A stretch of DNA of 64,000 bases from an uncultured Armatimonadia bacterium (GTDB lineage: Bacteria; Armatimonadota; Zipacnadia; CAVVLO01). Position 1 is the stretch's first letter; each line of letters begins with the position of its first letter. Positions 1,532-14,572 of the stretch are shown here, in pieces. The position numbers were made by a program, and so were the translations under genes. The stretch lies in contig CAVVLO010000002.1 of assembly GCA_963749155.1 (NCBI GenBank), positions 1,408,001 through 1,472,000 on the forward strand, written 5' to 3'. The notes beneath the pieces are model-generated. The model had not been told where the DNA came from and ran no database searches. It was given only the letters and a program-made list of their open reading frames with translations.

Positions 1532-3922
1532 GTGAAGCGCTTCTCCCTGGCCTTGGGTCTACTTGCCGCGCTAGTGCTGGTTGGCCATACCGCTGTCTGT
1601 TTCTCCGCAAAGCTGAATTTGGAATTGACCTGCTCTCAGCCTTCCTTTGTGCCTGGCGGCGCGCAGGCGCCCGAGCTTGTCGCGAAGCTGCTGGATAGCT
1701 CGGGGGCGCCCATCGCCCAGGCTGAGATCGAGCTTTCGCTGGCCAGGTTGGTGCCCTGGCTGTCGCTTTCGGTCACCTCGGCCTCGACGATGGCTGACGG
1801 GCAGGCGCGCTTCCCGCTTGCGGTCTCTTCCTCTTTGGCAGAGCTTGATCTTGCTACTCTGCCGCTATCTGCCCTGTTTATTGCGCGCACCAGTGTCGGC
1901 GCCCAGGCGGCTACCTGCCGGCTGGAGGTGCCTCTTGCGGCAGCGCTGCTGTCAGGCAGTTATGTCGATAGCGCAATGAGGCTTCGATCGCTTTCAGTGC
2001 TGCCCCAGGTTACTCCTCGTACAGCTTTGCTTGCTGCTGATACTGCGGGTGGAAACTTCCACTTGCTGGTCACGCCAACTGAAGGCAACCTGCTGCTCGA
2101 ATGGCCGCCCGAAGCCCCCTGTCCGCTGCGTTACACGGTGGCCGGGCCGCTTGCCGCTGGCAGCCAGGCGCGACTTGGTCGGTTCGACCTGCTCACTCCG
2201 GAAGAACACCGGGAACGTCTTTCCAGCCTGCTGTCCGAGCTGATGCAGCATCTGCCGCTGAGCGCTACTGGCAGGACCCAGGGCTTTGCTGCCGCCAGAG
2301 AGCTGAGCTTCGAGCCTGGCTCGGGCTATGCGCGTCCAGTCCTTGGCCCAGGTTCGCTCATAAAATTGCCGGGCAGCGAAGGAGAGTTCTGGGCCGCCGA
2401 TCCAGGCGATCCTGAAGCGCCTGCCCCTTACCCCTTGCTGCTGCGAGCTTTGGGCGATTTGTTGTGGGAGCGACTGGTAGAACCAGGGGCCTTCACCCGA
2501 GGCCAGCAACACGAGCTTGCAGAACTCCAGTGGAGCCCCTGGGCTGCGCTCGAACGGCCCGAGACCGCCTTTGCCGCGACCCGCAGCGAGGTTGTGGCTT
2601 CGCTTGTCCTGGCTTTTGCGCGGCAGGCCCATCCGGAGTGGGATGATTCACTTTACTTCCGAGATGCCGACCTGGCGGCTTATAAAGATGATGCCAAAGC
2701 GCTCCAGTTGCTGACCAGGCCTGTCATCGGCAGTCTGATACCAGGGCTTTCGGCTCGTGCAGTGCTCTCGCTTTATGGCGAGCTGCCCAAGAACTCTTCC
2801 GCCCAGGTGTTGGGCGATTTCCTCGCCACGGCAGCGCGTTATGCAGAGCTTTGCCCCTTGCGCCCCCACCCGGCCAGGACCCTTGCCGACTGGCTTGGCG
2901 CGCGTAGCGCCCTTGGCTCCCCCTACAAGCTGCCCGAAACCGGCAGCGCACAAAATCTGGCCGCCAGCTACAAGCTGTTTGGTGACACTGAACAGGTCAG
3001 TGCCTGTTATCTGGAGCCTCTGTCCCAGGCCGCCACCGCCTCTCTTGATGGCGCTCCGGTTGACTTCTCGGCGGGAGCGGTACGGCTTTCGACGGGCGCT
3101 ATCGCTGTCGAAGGCGGCGCGGTTGCGCTGTGTTGGCCAGGCGCAACTGGGGTTGGCAACGTTGCCGTGCTGGGGCCGGGAGCGGCAGGCAGTGTGGATG
3201 GGACCGCCCGGATGCAGGTTAACCGCGGCCAGGCGGCGGGTTGCCGACTGAAGGGACTCTGGACCCCTCCGGCTGCTTTCGCGCTGGCCGAGGGCGCGCT
3301 GTTTGCCCAGGTCGAGTCCTCTGGCGTCACTAAAGCGCTCGCAGAGCAAGGGCAGGTCAGTCGCTATCTGCAGGCAGGCCAGCAGCAACCAATTGCTGAA
3401 GGCGCCGGGCTGCTCCTCACCGGCGTCGACCAGCAGCAGGCCTTGCCGGCCGAAGAAGCCTCCGAGTTGCGCTCTCAGGTGCTGGCGCTCATTCCGCCTT
3501 ATGTCTCGAGCTTTGTTTGGGAAGGCCAACAGCAAAGCGGGGCGCCCGTGGCCGGCACCGACCTGTCTCCGGAAGGCTGGCTCGAAGTCGCCGGCGCTGG
3601 CCCTCTGGCTCGGATTAGCCTCTGTCGCGCGCTGGGGGCGGACTTCACCCCTGAGGGCGCCGCCTGGAAGTTTCCCTCCACCCTCACTGCGCTGGTGCTG
3701 GCCTTCGAGATGCGCGGTGTGCCCAGTCCGCTTCGGGTTGAGGTGCAGCTCGCTTACGAGGGTAATGTCCGGTATCGCCTCACTGCGCAGGTTCACGAGG
3801 CGGGTCAGTTCAAAGTGGATATCGCTCCCTCTGGCGGCGAACGCTTTACCGCGGGTGAATACTCGCTTCGCTTTCTCATCGACGGGCAGGAAGTGTTGCT
3901 TCACCCCTTCCGCATTCTCTAG
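1532..3922 (+). CDS. Secreted hypothetical protein, 796 aa; possible Ig-like N-terminus and degenerate FecR-like segment
   Basis: GGAGG RBS, GTG start, signal peptide MKRFSLALGLLAALVLVGHTAVCFSA. Domain guesses are weak. Confidence 0.6.
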   Translation: MKRFSLALGLLAALVLVGHTAVCFSAKLNLELTCSQPSFVPGGAQAPELVAKLLDSSGAPIAQAEIELSLARLVPWLSLSVTSASTMADGQARFPLAVSSSLAELDLATLPLSALFIARTSVGAQAATCRLEVPLAAALLSGSYVDSAMRLRSLSVLPQVTPRTALLAADTAGGNFHLLVTPTEGNLLLEWPPEAPCPLRYTVAGPLAAGSQARLGRFDLLTPEEHRERLSSLLSELMQHLPLSATGRTQGFAAARELSFEPGSGYARPVLGPGSLIKLPGSEGEFWAADPGDPEAPAPYPLLLRALGDLLWERLVEPGAFTRGQQHELAELQWSPWAALERPETAFAATRSEVVASLVLAFARQAHPEWDDSLYFRDADLAAYKDDAKALQLLTRPVIGSLIPGLSARAVLSLYGELPKNSSAQVLGDFLATAARYAELCPLRPHPARTLADWLGARSALGSPYKLPETGSAQNLAASYKLFGDTEQVSACYLEPLSQAATASLDGAPVDFSAGAVRLSTGAIAVEGGAVALCWPGATGVGNVAVLGPGAAGSVDGTARMQVNRGQAAGCRLKGLWTPPAAFALAEGALFAQVESSGVTKALAEQGQVSRYLQAGQQQPIAEGAGLLLTGVDQQQALPAEEASELRSQVLALIPPYVSSFVWEGQQQSGAPVAGTDLSPEGWLEVAGAGPLARISLCRALGADFTPEGAAWKFPSTLTALVLAFEMRGVPSPLRVEVQLAYEGNVRYRLTAQVHEAGQFKVDIAPSGGERFTAGEYSLRFLIDGQEVLLHPFRIL

Positions 3923-4000: not shown

Positions 4001-4088
4001 GCCGAAGTGGCGGAATTGGCAGACGCGCTAGGTTCAGGACCTAGTGAGCATTGCGCTCGTGGGGGTTCAAGTCCCCCCTTCGGCACCA
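4001..4088 (+). tRNA. tRNA-Leu(CAG)
   Basis: GCCGAAG/CTTCGGC acceptor stem, anticodon arm CTAGG-TTCAGGA-CCTAG, long variable arm, GTTCAAGTC T-loop, encoded CCA. Confidence 0.97.
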
Positions 4089-5386
4089 GGCTCTACTTCT
4101 ACTCTTTCGACTTCCCGGGGCAAAGCCGCAATCAGGCTTTGGCTTGCCTTGACGATAAACACGCCGCCCTCCTGGCCATACTCCTCGCTCAGTATCTCCA
4201 TCTGCTCCCGGGCCTGCTCTAGCAAACCAAGGCGCGCATAAGGCACTGTCAATTGCCATAGGCGATGACTGGCAGAGGCTTCTCGGTCCAGCAGGGCAAG
4301 CAGTCGGTCGAGTCCCTCGCCCGTTTTCGCAGATATAAACAGCGTAGCAAGCCCATCGCCAGGCAAGGTAGCCACCAACTCGCGCCGTTCGTCCCCCTCC
4401 AGCACGTCCAGCTTGTTGAAAAGCGTCACGATGGGCAGCTCGCCCGCGCCAAGCTCTTTCAAGGTCTTTGAGACCGCGCTCTGCTGCGAGGGGAAATCAG
4501 GATTGGAAAGGTCTACCACATGCAGTAGCAGGTCAGCGTGGAGGGTCTCTTCCAGGGTCGAGTGGAAAGCCGCCACAAGCTGGTGCGGCAGGTCGCGCAG
4601 AAAACCGACCGTATCAGTAATCAGCACCGTCCGGCCCGAAGCCAGCTTCAGGGTGCGAGTGGTTGGGTCAAGCGTCGCGAACAACCTGTCATCCGCATAG
4701 AGGTCGCTACCCGTCAGCGCGTTGAAAAGCGTCGACTTGCCCGAGTTGGTGTAACCGACTAGCGAGATCAGGAAAAGGCCGCTCTCAAGGCGCTGTTGAC
4801 GCTTGTTCGCGCGGGTGGCTTCGAGCTCTGCCAGTTTCTGTTCGAGGCGGTTTATCTGGTCTCTCACCTGGCGCCTGCCCACCTCAAGCTTCGTCTCGCC
4901 AGGGCCTCTGGTGCCTATACCGCCACCAAGCCTGGAGAGCATCTCACCGAGTCCTTTAAGCCGAGGTAGCGAATACTTCAGTTGCGCCAGGCTTACCTGC
5001 AACCTTCCCTCGCCAGATTTGGCCCGTTGCGCGAAAAGGTCGAGTATGAGCTGGTTGCGGTCAATGACTTTGCAGTCCAGCGCGTCTTCAAGGAAGGCAA
5101 GCTGACTCGGCGAGAGCTGCCCGCCGACGATGACGAGGTCTACAAGATAGGCTTTGGCGGCGTCTTCAACCTCTTCTACCTTGCCCTTGCCAAAATAACC
5201 TCTGACCGAGGGCCTGTCGCGGTGCTGCACCAGCACATCAACGATGTCAGCGCCCGCCGAATCGGCAAGCGCGCCCAGCTCCTCGACTTGGAGAGTTGGG
5301 TCTTCGCCCTGTTTCAGCACCAGCGCAAGCAGGGCTTTTTCGCGGCCACCTTCCAGGTTAAGCTCATTGTCTACTCGATCCGGCAT
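4067..5386 (-). CDS. hflX: GTPase HflX
   Basis: GGGIGTRGPGETKLE, GYTNSGKST, LFATLDPT, DTVGF, NKLD. ATG 5386 follows GGGGAGG. Confidence 0.95.
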   Translation of the reverse strand: MPDRVDNELNLEGGREKALLALVLKQGEDPTLQVEELGALADSAGADIVDVLVQHRDRPSVRGYFGKGKVEEVEDAAKAYLVDLVIVGGQLSPSQLAFLEDALDCKVIDRNQLILDLFAQRAKSGEGRLQVSLAQLKYSLPRLKGLGEMLSRLGGGIGTRGPGETKLEVGRRQVRDQINRLEQKLAELEATRANKRQQRLESGLFLISLVGYTNSGKSTLFNALTGSDLYADDRLFATLDPTTRTLKLASGRTVLITDTVGFLRDLPHQLVAAFHSTLEETLHADLLLHVVDLSNPDFPSQQSAVSKTLKELGAGELPIVTLFNKLDVLEGDERRELVATLPGDGLATLFISAKTGEGLDRLLALLDREASASHRLWQLTVPYARLGLLEQAREQMEILSEEYGQEGGVFIVKASQSLIAALPREVERVEVEPGAEGGT

Positions 5387-5419
5387 AATCGCCTCCCCTT
5401 CCATCGTAGCACACAAACG

Positions 5420-5450
5420 GAAAGGGCGCCCCCGAAGGGACGCCCCTTTC
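5420..5450 (-). terminator. Hairpin/terminator downstream of the thioester-protein gene
   Basis: Minus strand GAAAGGGGCGTCCC-TTCG-GGGGCGCCCTTTC, cUUCGg loop, followed by CGTTTG. Confidence 0.65.
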
Positions 5451-5471
5451 GCTTGGTGTCCACTTGCTTCT

Positions 5472-8400
5472 CTAGTCGACAATCAGCTCGATAGGCTGAG
5501 CTATCCGGTCCTCGTCAGGGTTGTAATACTGCCAGGCCCGCGAAGCCGGCGTCTTGGCCTTGATTGGATATTTGGCCTGCAGGCGATACTTCAGTTTGAT
5601 TTCCTGACCGCCTGCAATCTTGTCAAAGTACAGTGTGACTTGCCGCCCGTAGACGGTGTATTTCTGGATGACCTTGCTGCCCACCAGTTCGGCCAGATCG
5701 TCGCTCTGCACCTGGAAGCCTGGCGGCAGGCCAAGGTCTACCATAACCATCGAAAGCTCGGCGTTGGTGACATTTTTTACGGTTGCCGTGCAGGTGACGA
5801 AGTCGTCCTTGGCCAGGCGTGTCTTGTCGTAGGCGACCGAAAGATCCAGCACCTCGGCGGCTTCGATTGGTGCGTTCTGCCAGGGCAGCCAATAGCGCGT
5901 AACTACCTGGTAGAGCAGCGTACCCTTGCCAGCGAGTTTGAGCTGGATGTTGCTGCTGCCCTCCTTCACGAACTGGGTCACGTTGAGCGTCTGGGTGACG
6001 TCCGAAGTCTCGGGCGTTACCACCATATTGCCTGCCAGCTTGCCATCCACCAGCACCTGGATTTCGGCGTTGGTAGTGGTCTCGCTGCCGCTGTAGCCCA
6101 TCATCAAGGCCTTGAGCGCGAGGATGGTGGGCGTGGTGCTATACCAGCCTCCGCCTGGATCCTTCTTCTCCAGCAGCCAGTTCATCGCTCGCAGTGCCAA
6201 ATCGAGCTGGCTGCCTTTCCTTCAGCAAAGCCATTGCGGCAAGTGAGGTCGCTTCCACATCGGCGCCGTTGCCGCTGGAATAACTGGCGGTCGCCATCCC
6301 GGCTTCCCAGTGGGTAAGCTGCCCCTCGTCCTTGCGACGCTCTGCCAGCATCGTTGCTGCGCGCTTCGCCTCGGCGCTTTCGGGCCGCGCCCAGATGATC
6401 GCATTGGCGCAGAGGGTAAGCTCGTAGTTGGTTTTGGCCTGGTCCAGATGTTCGACCACATAGTCTACTGCCTTGCCGACCTCGGGCCGGTCAACGCCCG
6501 TACTCGCAAGTGCCCAGGCGATATAGGCTGTCGGCAGCAGATTGCCGTTCTGCAGACTGGCCCAGTGTTCGGCATGGTAGTATTCCTGCTCGGGGTCGAA
6601 ACTGCCGTCGGGTTTCTGCTGGCTGATGAGCCAGTTCTGAGTGCGCTCGATGATGCGCTCATCCACCGGGAACACCTTCGCCATGTCGGTGAAGGCCTGC
6701 ACTCCCCAGGCGGTCAGCAGCTTGTTGGCCGGTGGATTGCCGAACCACTCGAATCCGCCTCCATCCACCTCGTAGCTGATCATCCGCTGATATCCGACGT
6801 TGAGATACTGCTCTGCCTGCATCGCAAGCTCGGGATTCACTTTGCCGCTGGATTCGAGATACTGCAGCACCAGCGCATTGGGGTAGGTGACCGAGGTTGT
6901 CTGTTCAAAGCACCCATAGGGCATCTGAAGCAGCTTCTCGAGGCCCTCGACCGCCTGGCTGAGCATCCCGGGATAGAGCCGCACGAGCACCTGCGAGGCG
7001 CCGTCAATCGCTGCGGTCGGTACATTCACGGCGACCTGGGTGTCGGCCGAGAGGCGCCCATTGGCGACGCTCTCGATTTGGGTGCCATCGGGCACTATCT
7101 CGATGCTGCGCCTGATGGCGTCCGACAGCTTGGTCCCATATGCGAAGACGGTCAGCTTCTGGTTGCCAAGCTGCTTTGCCTTCAGGCGGAAGTAAACCAC
7201 CTGGATGTCATCCGGGCCTATCTGAAGGGTCTTGGTAGAATTGTCCAGCAGTTCGTACCAGTCCGCCGCTTCGAGTTGCAGCTTTACGCTCTGGCTGGTC
7301 TTGAGATAGTTGTAGACGGCGACCGGCACCGACACCTCATCGCCCTGGGTAAGCGCGACCGGCAGGTCCAGGTCCACGAAAAAGTCCTGGAAGACCTTGA
7401 TAGGCGTCGTGAGACTGCCGAACAGCCCGTTCGCGCTGTTGGCCAGCGCCGTGAGTCGCCAGGAGGTGATCGAGTCGGCCATCTCCAGGTTAACTTCGGC
7501 CTTGCCGTTAGCGTCAGTAACGAGCGCCGGATTCCAGTACATCGTCTCGGGGAAGTATTCCCGCACGTGCACTGGCTTGCCGGCTGGCGCGCCTGGCCCT
7601 GCGCCCATACCATTAGCCATACCTGATGCCGCGGCCATCGGCATCATAGCGCGATCTTCCATCACACCGGCTTTGAACATAACTCCCTCAGCGAGCATCC
7701 CGCCTCCGCGTCCGCCGCCGAAGCCACCGCCGAATTCGTCCAGGCCGAAGGCGCGCCCAGCGGCCAAATCGCCGGCAATCCGCTGAACATCCATCTCGCC
7801 TTCAAGTTCGCCCCAACGCATAACCCAGGCAGGCACTGGACCGAGGTCGTCCGAGGTCTCGAGCCGTCCGTCAGGCCCTGCCGACGTGAAGGCCAGATCC
7901 CAGGAACTGCTTCCTGTTACCTGATAGCGCTTGCCCCAGGGGTCAAGCAGTTGGGCTTCCTTCAGCTTGCCGGCCTTCAGCAACCGGTCGACTACTTTGG
8001 TGGCGTCCTGGTCGTTGTCGCCCCAGCCAGCCTCTACGACAGGCAGCACTTCTTCGAGCTGCGCGGTAAGCTGCTTCAGCAACTCCGGCACTTGCTGGGC
8101 GTAATCGTCCAGATAACTGCTGGCCGTCAGGCTGAATTCGGGCGCTGTGGGCGAAGCGGCCGCCATTAGCGCCTCGGCCAGATGCTGGGTGCCAGGCTGC
8201 TCGAGCACCGGAACAGGCTTCTCCAGCAGGTCCGGCAACTCCATCCCGTGGATCTCGAACTTCGGCTCCATCAGTTCTTTCTCGAGCAGGAAGTAGATTT
8301 TCGCAAGGCCGCTCTGCGCCTCGGCCAGCGCGAATACGCTCTCATCTACGATAGCCACGCCAAGACAGGCCGGGGTGGGAAGGCCAGAGGCTTGCTCCAC

Positions 8401-10071
8401 CGCGAACCGCAACACCGCCTGTTCGGCTGGTTTGTATTCGTCCCGGTCGGCGCGGACTTCAATCTTGAGGTCTTCGGCTGGCATCACTACGACCAGCTTG
8501 GTCGCGCTGACGATGTTCATATCCGGCTGGATGACATAAGCGTGCAAGGTAACCGAACCGACCAGATCAGCCGTCAGAGGCAACTCGACCTGAGCCTGAC
8601 CCCCTTCAGTGCGCATCGCTTCGGTCAGCACGGTCTGGCCGTCCTTGACCGCGTCGAAATAGAGATAGCGCCCCTTAAGCGGGGTCAGCGCGGTAAGCGT
8701 GAGCGAGTCTCCAACCCGCGCTATCGACTTGCTAACCCGCAGCAGCAGAGGGGTCTCGGTCGCCTCGGCGCCCCAGGAGAACTCCTCTGTGGCCTCCTGT
8801 CCCTGCGAATCTCGAGCGCTGGCGGAGTGAGTCACTTCTCCCGCCTTCACCATCGCTTCGTATTCGCCGTAGCCGGTCTCATCGGTCTTGACCTCGGCCT
8901 TGCCGAAGTCCCCTTTTACATTGACTGTGCAACGCGCGGGCGATCCGTCGGGATAGGTCGTCACGAGGAAGAAACGGTTGACGATACCTGCAACTGGCGC
9001 GCCAGCCTCGGGGATTATCTGGACATCCAGCGGCGAGGGCACTACCGCGCGCGACTGGCTGGCCTTCTCCTCGTGCTGGGCCAGATCAACGACCGTCGCC
9101 TCAAGCTCTACCGAACCCTGCCCCTGCAGGAAAGGCTGCCCTACAAAAGTCGCCGGCAAGGTGAGGGTTGCGCTGAAATGGCCCTTCTCATCGGTCTTGC
9201 CCTGTTCTGTATGGAAGACATCGCGCCCGACATCGAAGGTCGAGAAGTCGAGTTTTATGGTGCCGCCCGCCACCGGCTTGCCGAAGAAGTAATCTACCTG
9301 GGCGTCAACCTTCATCTGCTGGCCGGGGAGATACCAGTCCCGGTCGGTGGACAGGTTGATTTTGTATTTGGGCAGCACGTAACGCTTGACGGTGACGACT
9401 TTCTCGGTCTCGCCCGCGTCAAAGGAAGCCTTCACGCGATATTCGCCGAGGTTGACTTCATCCGCGAGCTGGAAATCTGCTGCCGCGACGCCGTATTCGT
9501 TGGACTTGAAGGTCTGTTTGAAAACCCGATTGCCCTTGGGATCTTCAACAGTGAAGAGGCAATCTTCCCCAGCAAGCGCCTTGTTAAGGCCGCTCTTCAA
9601 AGCTACCGCCCTGAGGTGGATGAGCTGCCCAGGCTGATAAAGCGGCTTGTCAGTCACCAGGTAGACCTGCGCCTGGCGCACCAGCCGCACATCGCGCTTG
9701 ACTGTGGCCGTGGCGCCCGAGCCCAGGGCTCGTACCATAAGGTGGTAGTCACCTGGCTCCAGGTCCGGCACGTGGAAGGCGCCCTGGAAAACTCCCGAGC
9801 GGTCTGTCTTGCCACTCGCAAGCAGCTTGAACAGCCCCTCTTCATTGGAGAGCGACACCCGGACGCTCGCGCCCTGGATGGCTTCCTCAGTGTTGTGATT
9901 CTGGAAGACGATCCGGAGCGATGCCGCGCTGTCACTCAGCCAGTCGCTCTGGCCGAAGACAAGCAGTTCCTGCGGGATAAGCCCCCCTGCACCAACAGGC
10001 TGAAAGCCTGCGACGGCGAGTAAAGCAATCAGTGGCACCAGGAGCGCCATTATTTTCAGTAGTCTGGCCAT
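5472..10071 (-). CDS. Alpha-2-macroglobulin/thioester-containing protein, about 1530 aa; one frameshift near 6215
   Basis: TDKPLYQPGQ, YVLPKY, VREYFPETMYW, DSITSW, thioester PYGCFEQ (6901-6921), C-terminal MVMVDLGLPPGF..YYNP in ORF 5472..6200. ATG 10071 follows AAGGAGG; signal peptide present. Confidence 0.93.
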
Positions 10072-10148
10072 TGCCAGGTCCCTCCTTAAAATAGAAGCTG
10101 CCCGTTGGACTTGCTCCTCCCCGGAAAAGTTCCCCAAGAGGGAGAGAG

Positions 10149-10811: not shown

Positions 10812-11214
10812 GCATAGGCCAACTCGAAGTGAGATAACAGGCTTACTCACTATCATCGACCGAGATCTGGCCGAATGTGAGCTTGCTGGGCTTTCAACTG
10901 ATTGGCGCTTCAACATCGCATATAACTCGGCTTTGCAGTGTGCCTTATGTGCTCTGGCAGCTTCTGGCTACCGACCTGCGCGTGAGGCCCATCACTATCG
11001 GGCACTGCAATCACTTTTGTATACCCTTGAGCTTGCCAACGATGAAGTGGCTTTACTGGATACTTGCCGTAAGAAGCGCAACCTCAGCGAATACAACCGA
11101 GCTGGTGCAATATCGGACAAAGAGGCATATGAGATACTGGACTTCGCAGTCTCGTTGCGAGCCAGACTTCTAGGCTGGCTTCAAGCTAAATACCCGATGC
11201 TACTGGACCTGTGA
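10771..11214 (+). CDS. HEPN-like protein, putative toxin partner
   Basis: 147-aa helical protein overlapping the MNT gene; AYNSALQ, HHYRAL, RKKRNLSEY. Confidence 0.7.
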   Translation: MSFSDWLANGWLIEHRPTRSEITGLLTIIDRDLAECELAGLSTDWRFNIAYNSALQCALCALAASGYRPAREAHHYRALQSLLYTLELANDEVALLDTCRKKRNLSEYNRAGAISDKEAYEILDFAVSLRARLLGWLQAKYPMLLDL

Positions 11215-11309
11215 CTGGTACTTTGCCTGCCTTCCCTCCTTGCCTCACCTGCCCTCGTAGGCAATAATGACACTGCCTTTTGTGCGCCCAAATTGACGAG
11301 GTGAGTTTT

Positions 11310-12431
11310 ATGGCTTCTCTGAAAGAACTGACCGCTGGATATATTGTCCCCTTGCAGAATCCCAAACCCGATGCCGAGCGTTTCATCGCGACGCTTATGG
11401 GGAAAGCTCAGCCCGAGCGTCCCCCCCTTATCGAGTATCTGATTGATCCCTTCGTGATGCGGCCTATCCTCGAAGAGCTGATGGGACGCAAGTGGGTAGA
11501 TCCAAATCCCGCCGAGCCAAACACCGTTTCGGCTTACCTCGATAACTTCATCGCTTTTTGGGAAGCGATGGGCTATGACTTCGTGCGCTTCGAGATGGCC
11601 TTGCCTTTCAGTTTCCAGACTTTGCTGGCGCACGACACCGCCCCAGGCACCAACAAGGACCGCGGTTGGGCCGACCAGCATCGCGGGCCGATTATGAGCT
11701 GGGAAGATTTCGAAACCTACAAGTGGCCGACCCTGGAGCAGTTTGACTGGAGCTGGCTCGAATATATCAACTCCCACCTGCCCGAGGGGATGGGTCTTAT
11801 TTCCTGCCACGCGGGGGGCGTATTCGAGCATCTCGAATATCTGATGAGCTACGAAGGCCTCGCTCTGGCGCTGTTCGATGACCCTGACCTGGTGCAAGCC
11901 ATCACTGACAAGCTTGGAGAGCTTTTTGTCTCCTTCTACAAGCAGTTGCTCAAACTGGACAAGCTGATTGCAGTCTTCCCAGGCGATGATATGGGCTTCA
12001 AGACGGGTACCCTTATCAGTCCTGACGACCTGCGCAAATATATCCTGCCCTGGCACAAGCGCTTTGCCCAGCTCACCCACGAGGCAGGTCTGCCTTACTT
12101 CCTGCACAGTTGCGGCAACATACTGGACCTGATGGAAGACTTCATTACCGATGTGAAGATAGACGCCAAACACAGCTACGAGGACGTAATTATCTCGGCC
12201 CCCGAGTTCCAGGCGCGTTATGGTGACCGGATCGCGGTGCTTGGTGGCATAGATGTGGATATCCTGACCCGCGGCACGCCTGATGAGGTGCGCGCCTATG
12301 TCAGAGGCTATATTGAGCAGTGTCACCCGCGAGGCAGATATGCAGTTGGCGCGGGCAACTCCGTACCGAGTTATATCCCTGCGATCAACTATCTGACAAT
12401 GCTGGACGAGACGCTCAAGTATCCAGGCTAG
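11310..12431 (+). CDS. Uroporphyrinogen decarboxylase / MtaA-CmuA family protein
   Basis: GDDMGFKTGTLISP, LHSCGN, LGGIDVD, GAGNSVPSYIP. Confidence 0.88.
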   Translation: MASLKELTAGYIVPLQNPKPDAERFIATLMGKAQPERPPLIEYLIDPFVMRPILEELMGRKWVDPNPAEPNTVSAYLDNFIAFWEAMGYDFVRFEMALPFSFQTLLAHDTAPGTNKDRGWADQHRGPIMSWEDFETYKWPTLEQFDWSWLEYINSHLPEGMGLISCHAGGVFEHLEYLMSYEGLALALFDDPDLVQAITDKLGELFVSFYKQLLKLDKLIAVFPGDDMGFKTGTLISPDDLRKYILPWHKRFAQLTHEAGLPYFLHSCGNILDLMEDFITDVKIDAKHSYEDVIISAPEFQARYGDRIAVLGGIDVDILTRGTPDEVRAYVRGYIEQCHPRGRYAVGAGNSVPSYIPAINYLTMLDETLKYPG

Positions 12432-12444
12432 GGGGAAGTCCCAA

Positions 12445-14572
12445 GTGAAAGAGTTGCCCTTCATCGTGGGTTCGCAGTATTACCGGGCGCCAACGCCCGT
12501 GAAGCAGGACTGGGATAGGGATCTGGCGCTGTTCGCGTCCAAGGGGCTCAACACCATAAAGATTTGGGCCCAATGGCGCTGGAACAATCCGGCCGAAGGC
12601 GTCTATCAGTTCGATGATGTGCTCGAGCTGCTTGACCTGGCGGGCAAGCATGGGCTGCACGTCGTGGTGAATACCATCTTCGACGTCGCCCCCGCCTGGG
12701 TCTTCCGCAAGTGGCCCGAGTGCCCGATGGTCACGGTAACTGGGCGCGTGCTCGGGCCGCAGACACTAGGTCACAGGCAAATTGGCGGTACGCCAGGCCC
12801 CTGCCTGCACCACACCGCCTTCGATGGAGGTCGCCCAGGAGTTTCTTGCCGAGTGCGCCAAAGCTCTGCGCGATGCCCCGGCCCTTCTGCTTTGGGATGC
12901 CTGGAACGAGCCCGAGCTGACCTGCGCCGTCGCCAGAGAGCCGAAAATCGACAACCTGGTCTGCTACTGTGACCACTCGATCGCCAAGTTCGGCGACTGG
13001 CTGCGCGCCCGGTACGGCGAAGACGTTGCGGCGCTCAACTACGCCTGGGGACGCAACTATCAGAACTGGGAAGAGGTCGAGGCCCCGGCTTCCTTCGGCA
13101 CCTTCCGGGACCTGATAGACTGGCGCCTTTTCTTCGTCGACACCATCACCGAAGAGCTGCGGACCCGCGTCCACATCCTGAAAGAGCATGACCCCACCCA
13201 CGCGGTAATGGCCCACACTGTACCCTTCCCGATTTTCAACCTGGTGACCTGCGCCTCTGACGACTTCGAACTGGCGGCGACCTGCGACCTGTTTGGCAAC
13301 AGCGCGGGCTCCAGCGCGCAAGCGGCCGACCTGCTTTCCTCCGCCGCCGACGGCAAGGTAGTCTTCAATGCGGAAGTCCACGCGATGGGGGGCAGCACCT
13401 GGTATCAGAACAAGCCTCTTGCAGACGCCGAGATGGACAGGTTCCTCCTGGCGCCGCTTGCACAGAATATGAAGGGCTATCTCTTCTGGCAATATCGGCC
13501 TGAGCGCCTGGGCCTGGAATCGCCCAACTGGGGCCTCACTGACCTCTCAGGTAACACGACCCCCTGGCTCGAGCGCCTTGCGAAGGTCAACGGCGAGTTG
13601 CAGCGCCGCAAGGACTTCCTGCTTCGCGCCAGGCCGCGCAAGGCCGAAGTCGGTCTGCTGCTGGATCCGGAGAACGAACTTTTCAACTGGTCTATCTCGC
13701 AGTCAATGGACTTCTACGCGAGTGCTGTCCGGGGCGCATACGATGCCCTGCACCGCGCGGGGTTTCAGGTGCGGTTCGTCCATCCGACCACCCTCTCGGA
13801 GGCAGGCGACCTGCCTGTTATTTATGCGCCCTGCCCCTATTGGCTGCAGCAGCGCACGCTGGACGGCCTGAAAAAGTATGTTGCCCAGGGCGGCCTGCTG
13901 GTGGCAGAACCCTACTTCGGCGGGATGGATCCGTCCACCGGCCTGCATGAAGAGGTCGTCCCCGGCCTTGGCTGGGATACTATCTTCGACACCGTGCAAG
14001 GCCTGGTGCTGCAACCCAGCACGGCCAGTTTCGATGCCTATGCCAACTGGGCTGGTGACTCGAGCCAGGCTGGCGACAGGCTGACGGTGAGGTTGGGCGA
14101 CCGCACCTTCGCCACTCCAGCCTTCCACCAGATGGTGGAACTAAAACCGGTCAGTAGCCTTGCAGCCGGGCAGTTTGGCAACGGCTGGACGGGGCTGACC
14201 TTCGCTCAATATGAGCAAGGCCAGGCGGCCCTTGTGGGCACATATCTCTCCGCTGCGGCAGCGCGGGGCTTGCCTGGCGCCGCCGAACTTATCGCGGCTT
14301 TGTGCGAGCGCGGGCCCAACAAACTGCGGCCCAGATCGCAAGGCGGCACCGTGCGCGTAGATCCCCTGACCGATGGCCAATACTATATGGTGATCGCTGC
14401 CTCGCTGGCAGGGGGTCCGACCGAGGACTTCCTGAGGTTGAATATGATTCCAGGTCGCTTGCTGGTGGACATAATGACCGGGCAAGAGTTCCCGCTCCGG
14501 GCCGAAGGCGACTGGAGTGTGGCGCTGGTGCCCTTCGAGACCGGCCAGGTACGCGCGCTTGAGGTAGTCTGA
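12445..14572 (+). CDS. GH42-type beta-galactosidase; frameshift near 12815
   Basis: GSQYYRAPTP, WDAWNEP, CYCDHS, WGRNYQNWEEV, FWQYRPE and a trimerisation-like domain, spread over ORFs 12445..12972 and 12782..14572. Confidence 0.85.

Follow-up and report, generated by a model that had tools for sequence, protein, structure and literature searches.

A 64,000-nucleotide stretch of contig CAVVLO010000002.1 from an uncultured Armatimonadia bacterium (hereafter the window) carries a single gene of the alpha-2-macroglobulin (A2M)/thioester-containing protein (TEP) superfamily, on the minus strand at 10071-5472 and spread over two frames, open reading frame (ORF) A and ORF B. Residues are numbered along ORF A, counted from the TTG at 10137. 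The features of the gene, which include macroglobulin (MG) domains, a bait-region domain (BRD) part and a thioester domain (TED), are the following, with the match or method that identifies each.

5472..10071, minus strand: whole A2M/TEP-type gene, from the ATG (M23 of ORF A) to the stop; ORFs and Pfam
6139-10137, minus strand: ORF A, 1332 residues from the TTG, with M23 at 10071 as probable ATG start
5472-6200, minus strand: ORF B, 242 residues
9988..10071, minus strand: N-terminal export signal (MARLLK, then a hydrophobic stretch); without Cys, hence without a lipobox
9406..9669, minus strand: MG2 domain (PF01835, 4.9e-25)
9157..9384, minus strand: MG3 domain (PF17791, 8.1e-9)
8326..8742, minus strand: A2M_BRD region, the MG5/MG6 part before the bait (PF07703, 2.9e-12)
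7798..8136, minus strand: GspG-like globular domain (residues 668-780) at the bait/anaphylatoxin position; profile, Pfam, AlphaFold2 (AF2) and Foldseek
7570..7800, minus strand: Gly/Ala/Met-rich low-complexity linker (residues 780-856), ending at VHVREYFPETMYWNP; presumed bait
7273..7545, minus strand: A2M domain, which holds VFQDFFVDLDLP..VYNY (PF00207, 1.1e-23)
6217..7002, minus strand: thioester domain as far as the frame break, its first 262 residues (TED_complement, 7.4e-41; AF2; fold match)
6901..6915, minus strand: thioester motif GCFEQ (Cys1076, Gln1079); motif scan
6574..6576, minus strand: His1188, counterpart of the C3 and TEP1 catalytic His; alignment
6216-6218, minus strand: AAA run with a one-base frame break; the frames switch inside 'gaaagg'
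5508..5753, minus strand: C-terminal MG8, a receptor-binding-type domain (A2M_recep, PF07677, 2.3e-13)

The match of this gene to A2M/TEP proteins, in motifs and in Pfam domains, is far beyond chance. Its Pfam set (MG2, MG3, A2M_BRD, A2M and A2M_recep) lies entirely above the Pfam cut-offs, with ORF B contributing the end of the TED and A2M_recep. A preliminary description of this DNA had listed a series of complement- and TEP-like motifs, and a motif scan of the two ORFs recovered every one at its place: YVLPKY at 253, VFQDFFVDLDLP at 915, VYNY at 941, GCFEQ at 1075-1079, GYQR at 1115, QKPDGSFDPEQEYYH at 1174-1188 and VEATSLAAMALL at 1294 of ORF A, and GGGWYST at 16 and YYNP at 225 of ORF B. 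The same description had placed a His codon at 6574-6576, 112 residues past the thioester Cys, and both residues and the distance from Cys1076 to His1188 are as claimed. Six Cys residues occur in the whole protein, one of them in the last 242 residues and none within the first 170 residues after M23. The G+C content of the gene is similar to that of its flanks.

By its predicted domain content, the window protein has an animal-type A2M/TEP thioester architecture and is of neither the YfhM nor the MagD type. A search of solved structures returned 72 distinct sequences at E<=0.001, and the best 60 of the 72 are all animal proteins. Scored with phmmer, the closest was CD109 (214 bits, E 2.2e-62), followed by A2M (193 bits, 6e-56), A2ML1 (190 bits, 4e-55), TEP1 (150 bits, 5.5e-43), C3 (135 bits), C4 (109 bits) and C5 (86 bits). 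E. coli K-12 YfhM reached 32.9 bits at equal database size, and 47.8 bits with 23% identity over 287 residues by BLASTP. Neither bMG1, bMG2, bMG3, bMG5, bMG6 nor bMG10 rises above its Pfam threshold in the window protein; bMG10 leaves a sub-threshold trace in ORF B (18.5 bits versus the 26.2 needed), and only ~135 residues precede MG2. No pbpC gene is adjacent, and the PbpC C-terminal domain PF06832 has no match in the organism's own genome, which is 100% complete. The low YfhM score, the missing bMG domains, the missing lipobox and the missing pbpC together argue that the protein does not nest with YfhM- or MagD-type macroglobulins. The preliminary description had set the protein apart from YfhM on the grounds of lipobox and pbpC and had seen in it a likeness to metazoan A2M and TEP proteins, and these points are borne out by the scores and the domain set.

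The protein is, by the same domain criteria, not a C3. An anaphylatoxin (ANA) domain finds no Pfam match in it, and the C345C/NTR domain is missing, with the chain ending 11 residues past the A2M_recep match. There is room for a CUB domain on both sides of the TED (at about residues 956-1045 and at 45-120 of ORF B), with no match to Pfam CUB_A2MG. NCBIfam holds no model for the family and returned only sub-threshold squalene-cyclase matches, which we attribute to the shared alpha/alpha toroid. In a protein atlas, values were 0.90-0.96 for bacterial A2M clusters and 0.89 for one of chordate anaphylatoxins, which is uninformative about descent.

We modelled the TED with AF2 (mean predicted local distance difference test score, pLDDT, 88.7) and compared it with solved folds. 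Superposition on C3d, which had been proposed as a check, gave a Z score of 22.7 and a root-mean-square deviation of 2.7 A over 231 residues. Fold scores for TEP1 (23.6), CD109 (22.9), C3d (22.7), A2M (22.6) and C5 (22.4) are tied, so that they do not separate these proteins; TED identity to human proteins is 22-30%, and bacterial A2M is absent from the best 50 Foldseek matches listed for the model. A 51-residue piece around His1188 aligns to C3d (QKPDGVFQEDAPVIHQE) without a gap from QKPDG to the His, the single gap of the alignment lying upstream of QKPDG, and to TEP1 with no gap at all. Both His1188 and the Glu at +2 find their partners in C3d (His133/Glu135). His1188 thus pairs with the His that is catalytic in C3 and TEP1, as had been suggested. 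In full-length C3 chains its partner is residue 1126 and the thioester Cys is chain residue 1010 (1qsj_A, model residue 31), which puts the C3 Cys-His spacing, from the ranges of the tool alignments, at 116 and not at the 112 of the window protein; the earlier statement that the two spacings are identical does not stand.

In C3 the reaction proceeds by way of an acyl-imidazole at the His, which directs it to hydroxyls, and the preliminary description had likened the window's His to this residue. The distribution of the residue speaks against a special link to C3. Among the closest sequences (n=120) the column holds His in 87, Ala in 23, Asp in 6, Arg in 2 and Gln in 2; across diverse genomes (n=41), His in 16, Ala in 9, Asn in 6, Asp in 4 and eight others; and among cluster representatives (n=144), His in 64, Ala in 22, Asn in 9 and an alignment gap in 26. 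The same kind of variation at this position is found in the animal superfamily. On these alignments His is a common subtype state in the bacterial family and not a family constant. Because the column varies in this way, the His is no evidence of a special tie to C3, and the protein moreover scores nearer to CD109, A2M and A2ML1 than to C3, C4 or C5.

The position at which animal macroglobulins carry their bait is occupied here by a folded insert, which lies between A2M_BRD and the A2M domain and at which relatives match PF08334 (T2SSG). We built a profile from 24 aligned bait-position inserts, the window's own being residues 668-780. This profile matched the heads of solved GspG/PulG structures at 1.1e-9 (3g20), 9.6e-9 (1t92) and down to 2.4e-7, and PF08334 was matched by 19 of the 24 inserts; the window's own insert falls below the 21-bit cut-off (18.4 bits, E 0.0023). 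The D, W and G of DPWG and the G, D and DD of GPDG..T.DD are invariant in all 24. The latter motif we take to be the calcium loop of GspG-type pseudopilins. An AF2 model of the insert (pLDDT 86.9) shows a long helix and a small sheet, and in Foldseek it matches best, if weakly (E 0.011, TM 0.46), a set made up entirely of pseudopilins and type IV pilins. A hydrophobic 19-mer is absent from the window's insert, which is accordingly without the pilin helix, and a prepilin cleavage site is absent as well. On profile evidence, the insert is a GspG-like domain, an identification that can be regarded as established for the family as a whole. Literature linking a macroglobulin with GspG or a pseudopilin was absent from the matches listed in our searches, whose coverage stops short of subscription journals.

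Behind the GspG-like domain runs a linker of 77 residues, of which 21 are Gly, 14 Ala and 9 Met, with a hypervariable sequence that differs in every relative. Its Met richness is unusual, and similar MPMAAP/GGMMGG runs are seen in relatives. The conserved REYFPET at its end aligns with residue 730 of A2M and residue 761 of C3, which lie just past the A2M bait and the C3 ANA domain, respectively. From this correspondence, the folded domain and the floppy linker appear to stand at the place of the animal bait and anaphylatoxin, and we presume residues 780-856 to be the protease bait. The bait region is not uniform across the family. Among 159 relatives, 122 have the D.WG motif, 33 have a hydrophobic 19-mer, 11 have both and 15 have neither, and a single protein can hold up to seven of the hydrophobic 19-mers at this position. 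The hydrophobic form occurs at loci of Verrucomicrobiota, Planctomycetota and Chloroflexota (L016, L036, L043 and L069), in which runs of membrane-type segments replace the pseudopilin-like domain.

Database searches place the gene as one of thousands of bacterial relatives in a very large uncharacterised family. A word-indexed protein search scored 8000 sequences, 881 of them at E<=0.001, and we analysed the best 120 of the 881. In an exhaustive search with the MG7-CUB-TED region, 14918 cluster representatives matched at E<=0.001, 8051 at 1e-10 and 2758 at 1e-30; the best 150 are listed, and the 150th still scores 417 bits. All listed matches from either search belong to the bacterial family. 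The best 120 range from 1310 to 1851 residues; the shortest is ORF A of the window itself, and every other one has at least 1516. The relatives among them share 37-54% identity over the best local alignment and the same Pfam set. Their source names include Hydrogenedentes, Armatimonadota, WOR-3, Cloacimonas, Chthonomonadaceae and Cyanobacteriota; several carry the wrong name GspG. All 120 (119 relatives and the window's own protein) have GCFEQ, as do 142 of 145 representatives, the other three having GCMEQ or GCLEQ. An N-terminal hydrophobic segment was found in 143 of 159 relatives and a lipobox-like site in 3 of the 159.

A relative turned up in 109 of the 121 candidate stretches from species-representative genomes, and 80 were kept. 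Their titles name Armatimonadota, Verrucomicrobiota, Planctomycetota, Chloroflexota, Acidobacteriota, Omnitrophota, Spirochaetales, Sumerlaeota, Moduliflexus, a Deltaproteobacteria metagenome-assembled genome (MAG) and one Altiarchaeota MAG, and the MAGs come from sediment, soil and sludge. The family spans more than ten phyla. Within the window's own class, 30 of 41 genomes have a match (its own included), and the locus described here is the only A2M-family locus in the window's genome. The gene belongs to a third, far larger class of bacterial macroglobulins beyond the YfhM and MagD types. A description of an animal-type bacterial A2M/TEP class was not found in the literature covered, to which subscription journals do not belong.

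The surroundings of the gene were compared over 32 relatives' loci with full flanks, that is, 64 immediate neighbours. None of the 64 is a pbpC-like gene. An extracytoplasmic function (ECF) sigma factor stands directly upstream in 4 of the 32 loci, a placement that hints at envelope-stress control in those lineages. The four loci (L016, L069, L070 and L075) are from Planctomycetota/Verrucomicrobiota and have the sigma factor on the same strand, with L016 carrying one downstream too. Two of the 32 have another A2M-type gene as a neighbour. These are Acidobacteriota loci (L052:12881-18769 and L079:1853-7393) at which the second, longer A2M/TEP-type gene (1962 and 1846 residues) adjoins the first; its product has a CarboxypepD_reg domain that follows the BRD region and precedes the A2M region. 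A subtilase neighbour and an immediately upstream T2SS-F gene were found in 1 of the 32 loci each.

In the window itself the neighbours are HflX and a helix-turn-helix (HTH)-nucleotidyltransferase. The HflX GTPase ORF (4067-5482, minus strand, the same strand as the A2M-type gene) begins within 11 bases of that gene's stop; the pairing looks accidental, since a GTPase is absent among the 32 downstream neighbours of relatives. Two further ORFs, at 1532-3922 (plus strand, 796 residues) and 11181-12464 (minus strand, 427 residues), have no Pfam match at E<=0.001.

Taken together, these data make it probable, in our judgement, that the gene encodes an exported, monomer-type A2M/TEP thioester protein of animal-type layout that acts as a covalent trap triggered by a foreign protease. 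The layout would comprise MG1-MG6, the insert at the bait position, MG7, a CUB carrying the TED, and MG8. By homology, the protein would be exported by its signal peptide and would hold a buried thioester between Cys1076 and Gln1079. A foreign protease would cut the exposed linker (about residues 780-856) behind the GspG-like domain, the cleavage would bring about a rearrangement, and the thioester would be exposed. His1188, acting through an acyl-imidazole as in C3, would then transfer the Gln carbonyl to a hydroxyl or amine close by, the likeliest acceptor being the attacking protease itself, which would be left tethered and sterically blocked. The outcome would be a snap-trap protecting the cell envelope, of a kind that PMC12939704 proposes for monomeric family members. 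Monomeric family members of both bacterial and human origin trap proteases covalently, according to the available parts of two sources (PMC12939704, PMC9156758).

Several observations weigh against a protease trap encoded by an intact gene. There is no conserved partner gene among the 64 immediate neighbours of the 32 loci, the His loop of the TED model has a pLDDT of only ~60, and we found no biochemical data on any member of the bacterial family in the literature that our searches covered. The window sequence as given carries a frameshift; the base missing from one of the contigs that bear on it (X1, below) is only 18 letters from the contig end, and the window's own version across 6216 is neither confirmed nor refuted by any contig of the four runs compared (X1-X4). 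In addition, the His type in C3 and TEP1 goes with surface tagging and not with protease trapping. This last point leads to the proposal of the preliminary description, a secreted opsonin whose activated His-type thioester would esterify glycan hydroxyls on competitors, phage or predators. The alignment of His and Glu with C3d His133/Glu135 agrees with it, as does the His majority (87/120) in the closest relatives, and the available part of PMC5489563 calls TEP1, in which the His is present, an opsonin. Yet a function shared by the family cannot depend on the His, because the column is variable (16/41, 64/144); the protein scores nearer to the inhibitors CD109, A2M and A2ML1 than to C3; the 32 loci have no conserved neighbour coding for a receptor, a convertase-like protease or a lectin; and a His-type thioester serves a covalent protease trap too. 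We know of no bacterial reader of a glycan- or opsonin-type tag. We regard an opsonin as unlikely, and this proposal has no support of its own.

Three other accounts, among them an origin by recent animal-to-bacterium transfer that is taken up below, appear less likely than the protease trap. One is a covalent adhesin or matrix anchor, in which the thioester would attach the cell or the cell envelope to some substrate and the pseudopilin-like domain would dock to a pilus or secretion apparatus; the model for such a role is the thioester adhesins of Gram-positive bacteria, which are unrelated proteins. The GspG-like domain would suit this, and in sister forms the hydrophobic, membrane-type segments at the same site tie the trigger region to the envelope. 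Pilus and secretion genes are nevertheless not conserved alongside (T2SS-F lies immediately upstream in the single locus noted above), and the full MG-ring/CUB/MG8 machinery fits a triggered trap and not a simple adhesin, so we regard this role as very unlikely. On the other account the extra A at 6216-6218 is real and the gene a true pseudogene, whose protein would be truncated inside the TED, with loss of the TED end, half of the CUB, and MG8. It starts from the window sequence itself, which shows the break, and from a GH42 beta-galactosidase nearby (12445-14572) that is also split over two frames and could mean gene decay. The latter gene, on the plus strand, consists of overlapping ORFs (12445-12972 and 12782-14572) that match successive parts of the Pfam profile, and no homopolymer occurs at its frame break within 12740-12840. 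Two split genes within 7 kb fit assembly indel errors at least equally well.

Independent sequence also bears on the break. We aligned Logan contigs of four public runs (X1-X4) to 5400-7000 of the window, and site 6216 was covered in X1 and X2. The X1 contig lacks one letter at 6216 and has 3 other differing letters over 6198-7000 (803 letters); the X2 contig (6115-6663) lacks the same letter and has 19 other differing letters in 549. With one A fewer the sequence reads LLKEGSQLDLALRAMNWLLEKKDPGGGW, which matches intact relatives in length and pattern at the junction. Relatives read straight through at this point, and the lengths agree residue for residue. Both frames are without further stops, and the product after removal of the break is 1532 residues long; relatives at 39 of 40 loci examined encode 1486-1877 residues and the remaining one 1330. 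The proposal that the two frames be merged therefore holds insofar as the two ORFs make up one gene, with the reservation that a real one-base break at 6216-6218 lies between them. Since the contigs of two runs are without the A and the relatives read straight through, the break is probably an artefact, and we are confident that it represents an assembly indel error or a strain variant and not gene decay; for the same reasons, together with the freedom of both frames from other stops, a pseudogene is quite unlikely.

The contig pieces from X1-X4 differ from the window by 0 to 19 letters each, up to ~6% of a piece, and thus come from close strains. Words of 31 letters sampled from 5800-6600 were found in 20 runs of 12 studies at shares of 0.21-0.82, and in one further run without a study. 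These runs are sediment, marine, soil, sludge and wastewater metagenomes, and the window organism or its near relatives appear widespread.

The closest solved structures by sequence and by fold are animal, as would be expected after a recent transfer from an animal genome, an idea that citing papers attribute to Budd et al. 2004. Against such a transfer stand the relatives in environmental MAGs of many phyla, the 2758 cluster representatives at E<=1e-30, the identity of only 22-30% between the TED and human proteins, and a G+C content similar to that of the flanks; we regard it as highly improbable. A different relationship, which we put forward tentatively and with more doubt than confidence, is that the bacterial family is the stock, or the sister of the stock, of the animal thioester proteins (A2M, CD109, TEPs and C3). 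If this were true, the eight-MG layout, the choice between a His and a non-His thioester and a folded plug at the activation site would predate animals, and the still-cited idea of A2M uptake by bacteria from animal hosts would be reversed. That idea is voiced in the accessible text of a 2026 review, according to which bacteria probably obtained A2M from animal hosts (PMC13069473). In the accessible text of another 2026 review, the bacterial form is drawn with extra N-terminal domains and the eukaryotic bait-region domain is called substantially larger than the bacterial one (PMC12939704); the available part of PMC3735191 treats the YfhM and MagD types as its only bacterial forms.

The third class fits none of these descriptions. 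It combines an animal-type domain set with a distribution over environmental bacteria of many phyla, a large bait region with a pseudopilin-like domain (membrane segments in sister forms), and a variation between His, Asn, Asp and Ala at the thioester-transfer position that resembles that of the animal proteins. The family offers a tractable bacterial model for His-type thioester chemistry and makes the origin of complement-type proteins testable by a tree.

Among known bacterial systems, YfhM (ECAM) and the Salmonella A2M resemble the window protein in being bacterial and exported, with a CxEQ thioester and a presumed role as an envelope protease trap. YfhM differs in its bMG1, bMG2, bMG3, bMG5, bMG6 and bMG10 domains (Pfam), which the window protein lacks, and it has a lipobox and pbpC next door (PMC3735191, in the part available), neither of which is found at the window gene. 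MagD/YfaS, of the thioester-less class, has in common with the window protein its bacterial origin, MG domains, a signal peptide and the lack of a lipobox. MagD is described in the same available text as having no Cys and sitting in a six-gene operon (PMC3735191), whereas the window protein keeps an intact GCFEQ and is without the six-gene mag operon. With the type II secretion major pseudopilins GspG, PulG and EpsG, the insert shares the globular head, including the DPWG and GPDG..T.DD motifs; it differs in missing their N-terminal hydrophobic helix and prepilin peptidase site and in being an internal domain of a 1532-residue protein.

The best matches of the window protein by sequence and TED fold are CD109, A2M, A2ML1 and TEP1, which have the same Pfam set and thioester motif and likewise end in MG8; the presumed activation region, too, lies as in these proteins between the two halves of MG6. 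TEP1 shares the His in the 51-residue alignment, and CD109 also has it. The animal motif is GCGEQ, compared with GCFEQ in the window protein, and where animal A2M and TEP proteins have their bait region the window protein has a pseudopilin-like domain. A GPI signal and tetramerisation are not known for it. With only six Cys, the bacterial protein is without the disulphide pattern of animal CD109, A2M and TEPs and without the C-terminal cysteine signature of insect TEPs (iTEPs) as described in the available part of PMC5489563. C3 differs in its ANA and C345C/NTR domains, in its lower score (135 bits) than A2M and CD109 and in its Cys-His spacing (116 versus 112), and its two-chain processing site has no evident counterpart in the window protein. 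What the two have in common is the thioester-transfer His and Glu, a TED that superposes on C3d, and a folded domain at the very insertion point that the anaphylatoxin occupies in C3.

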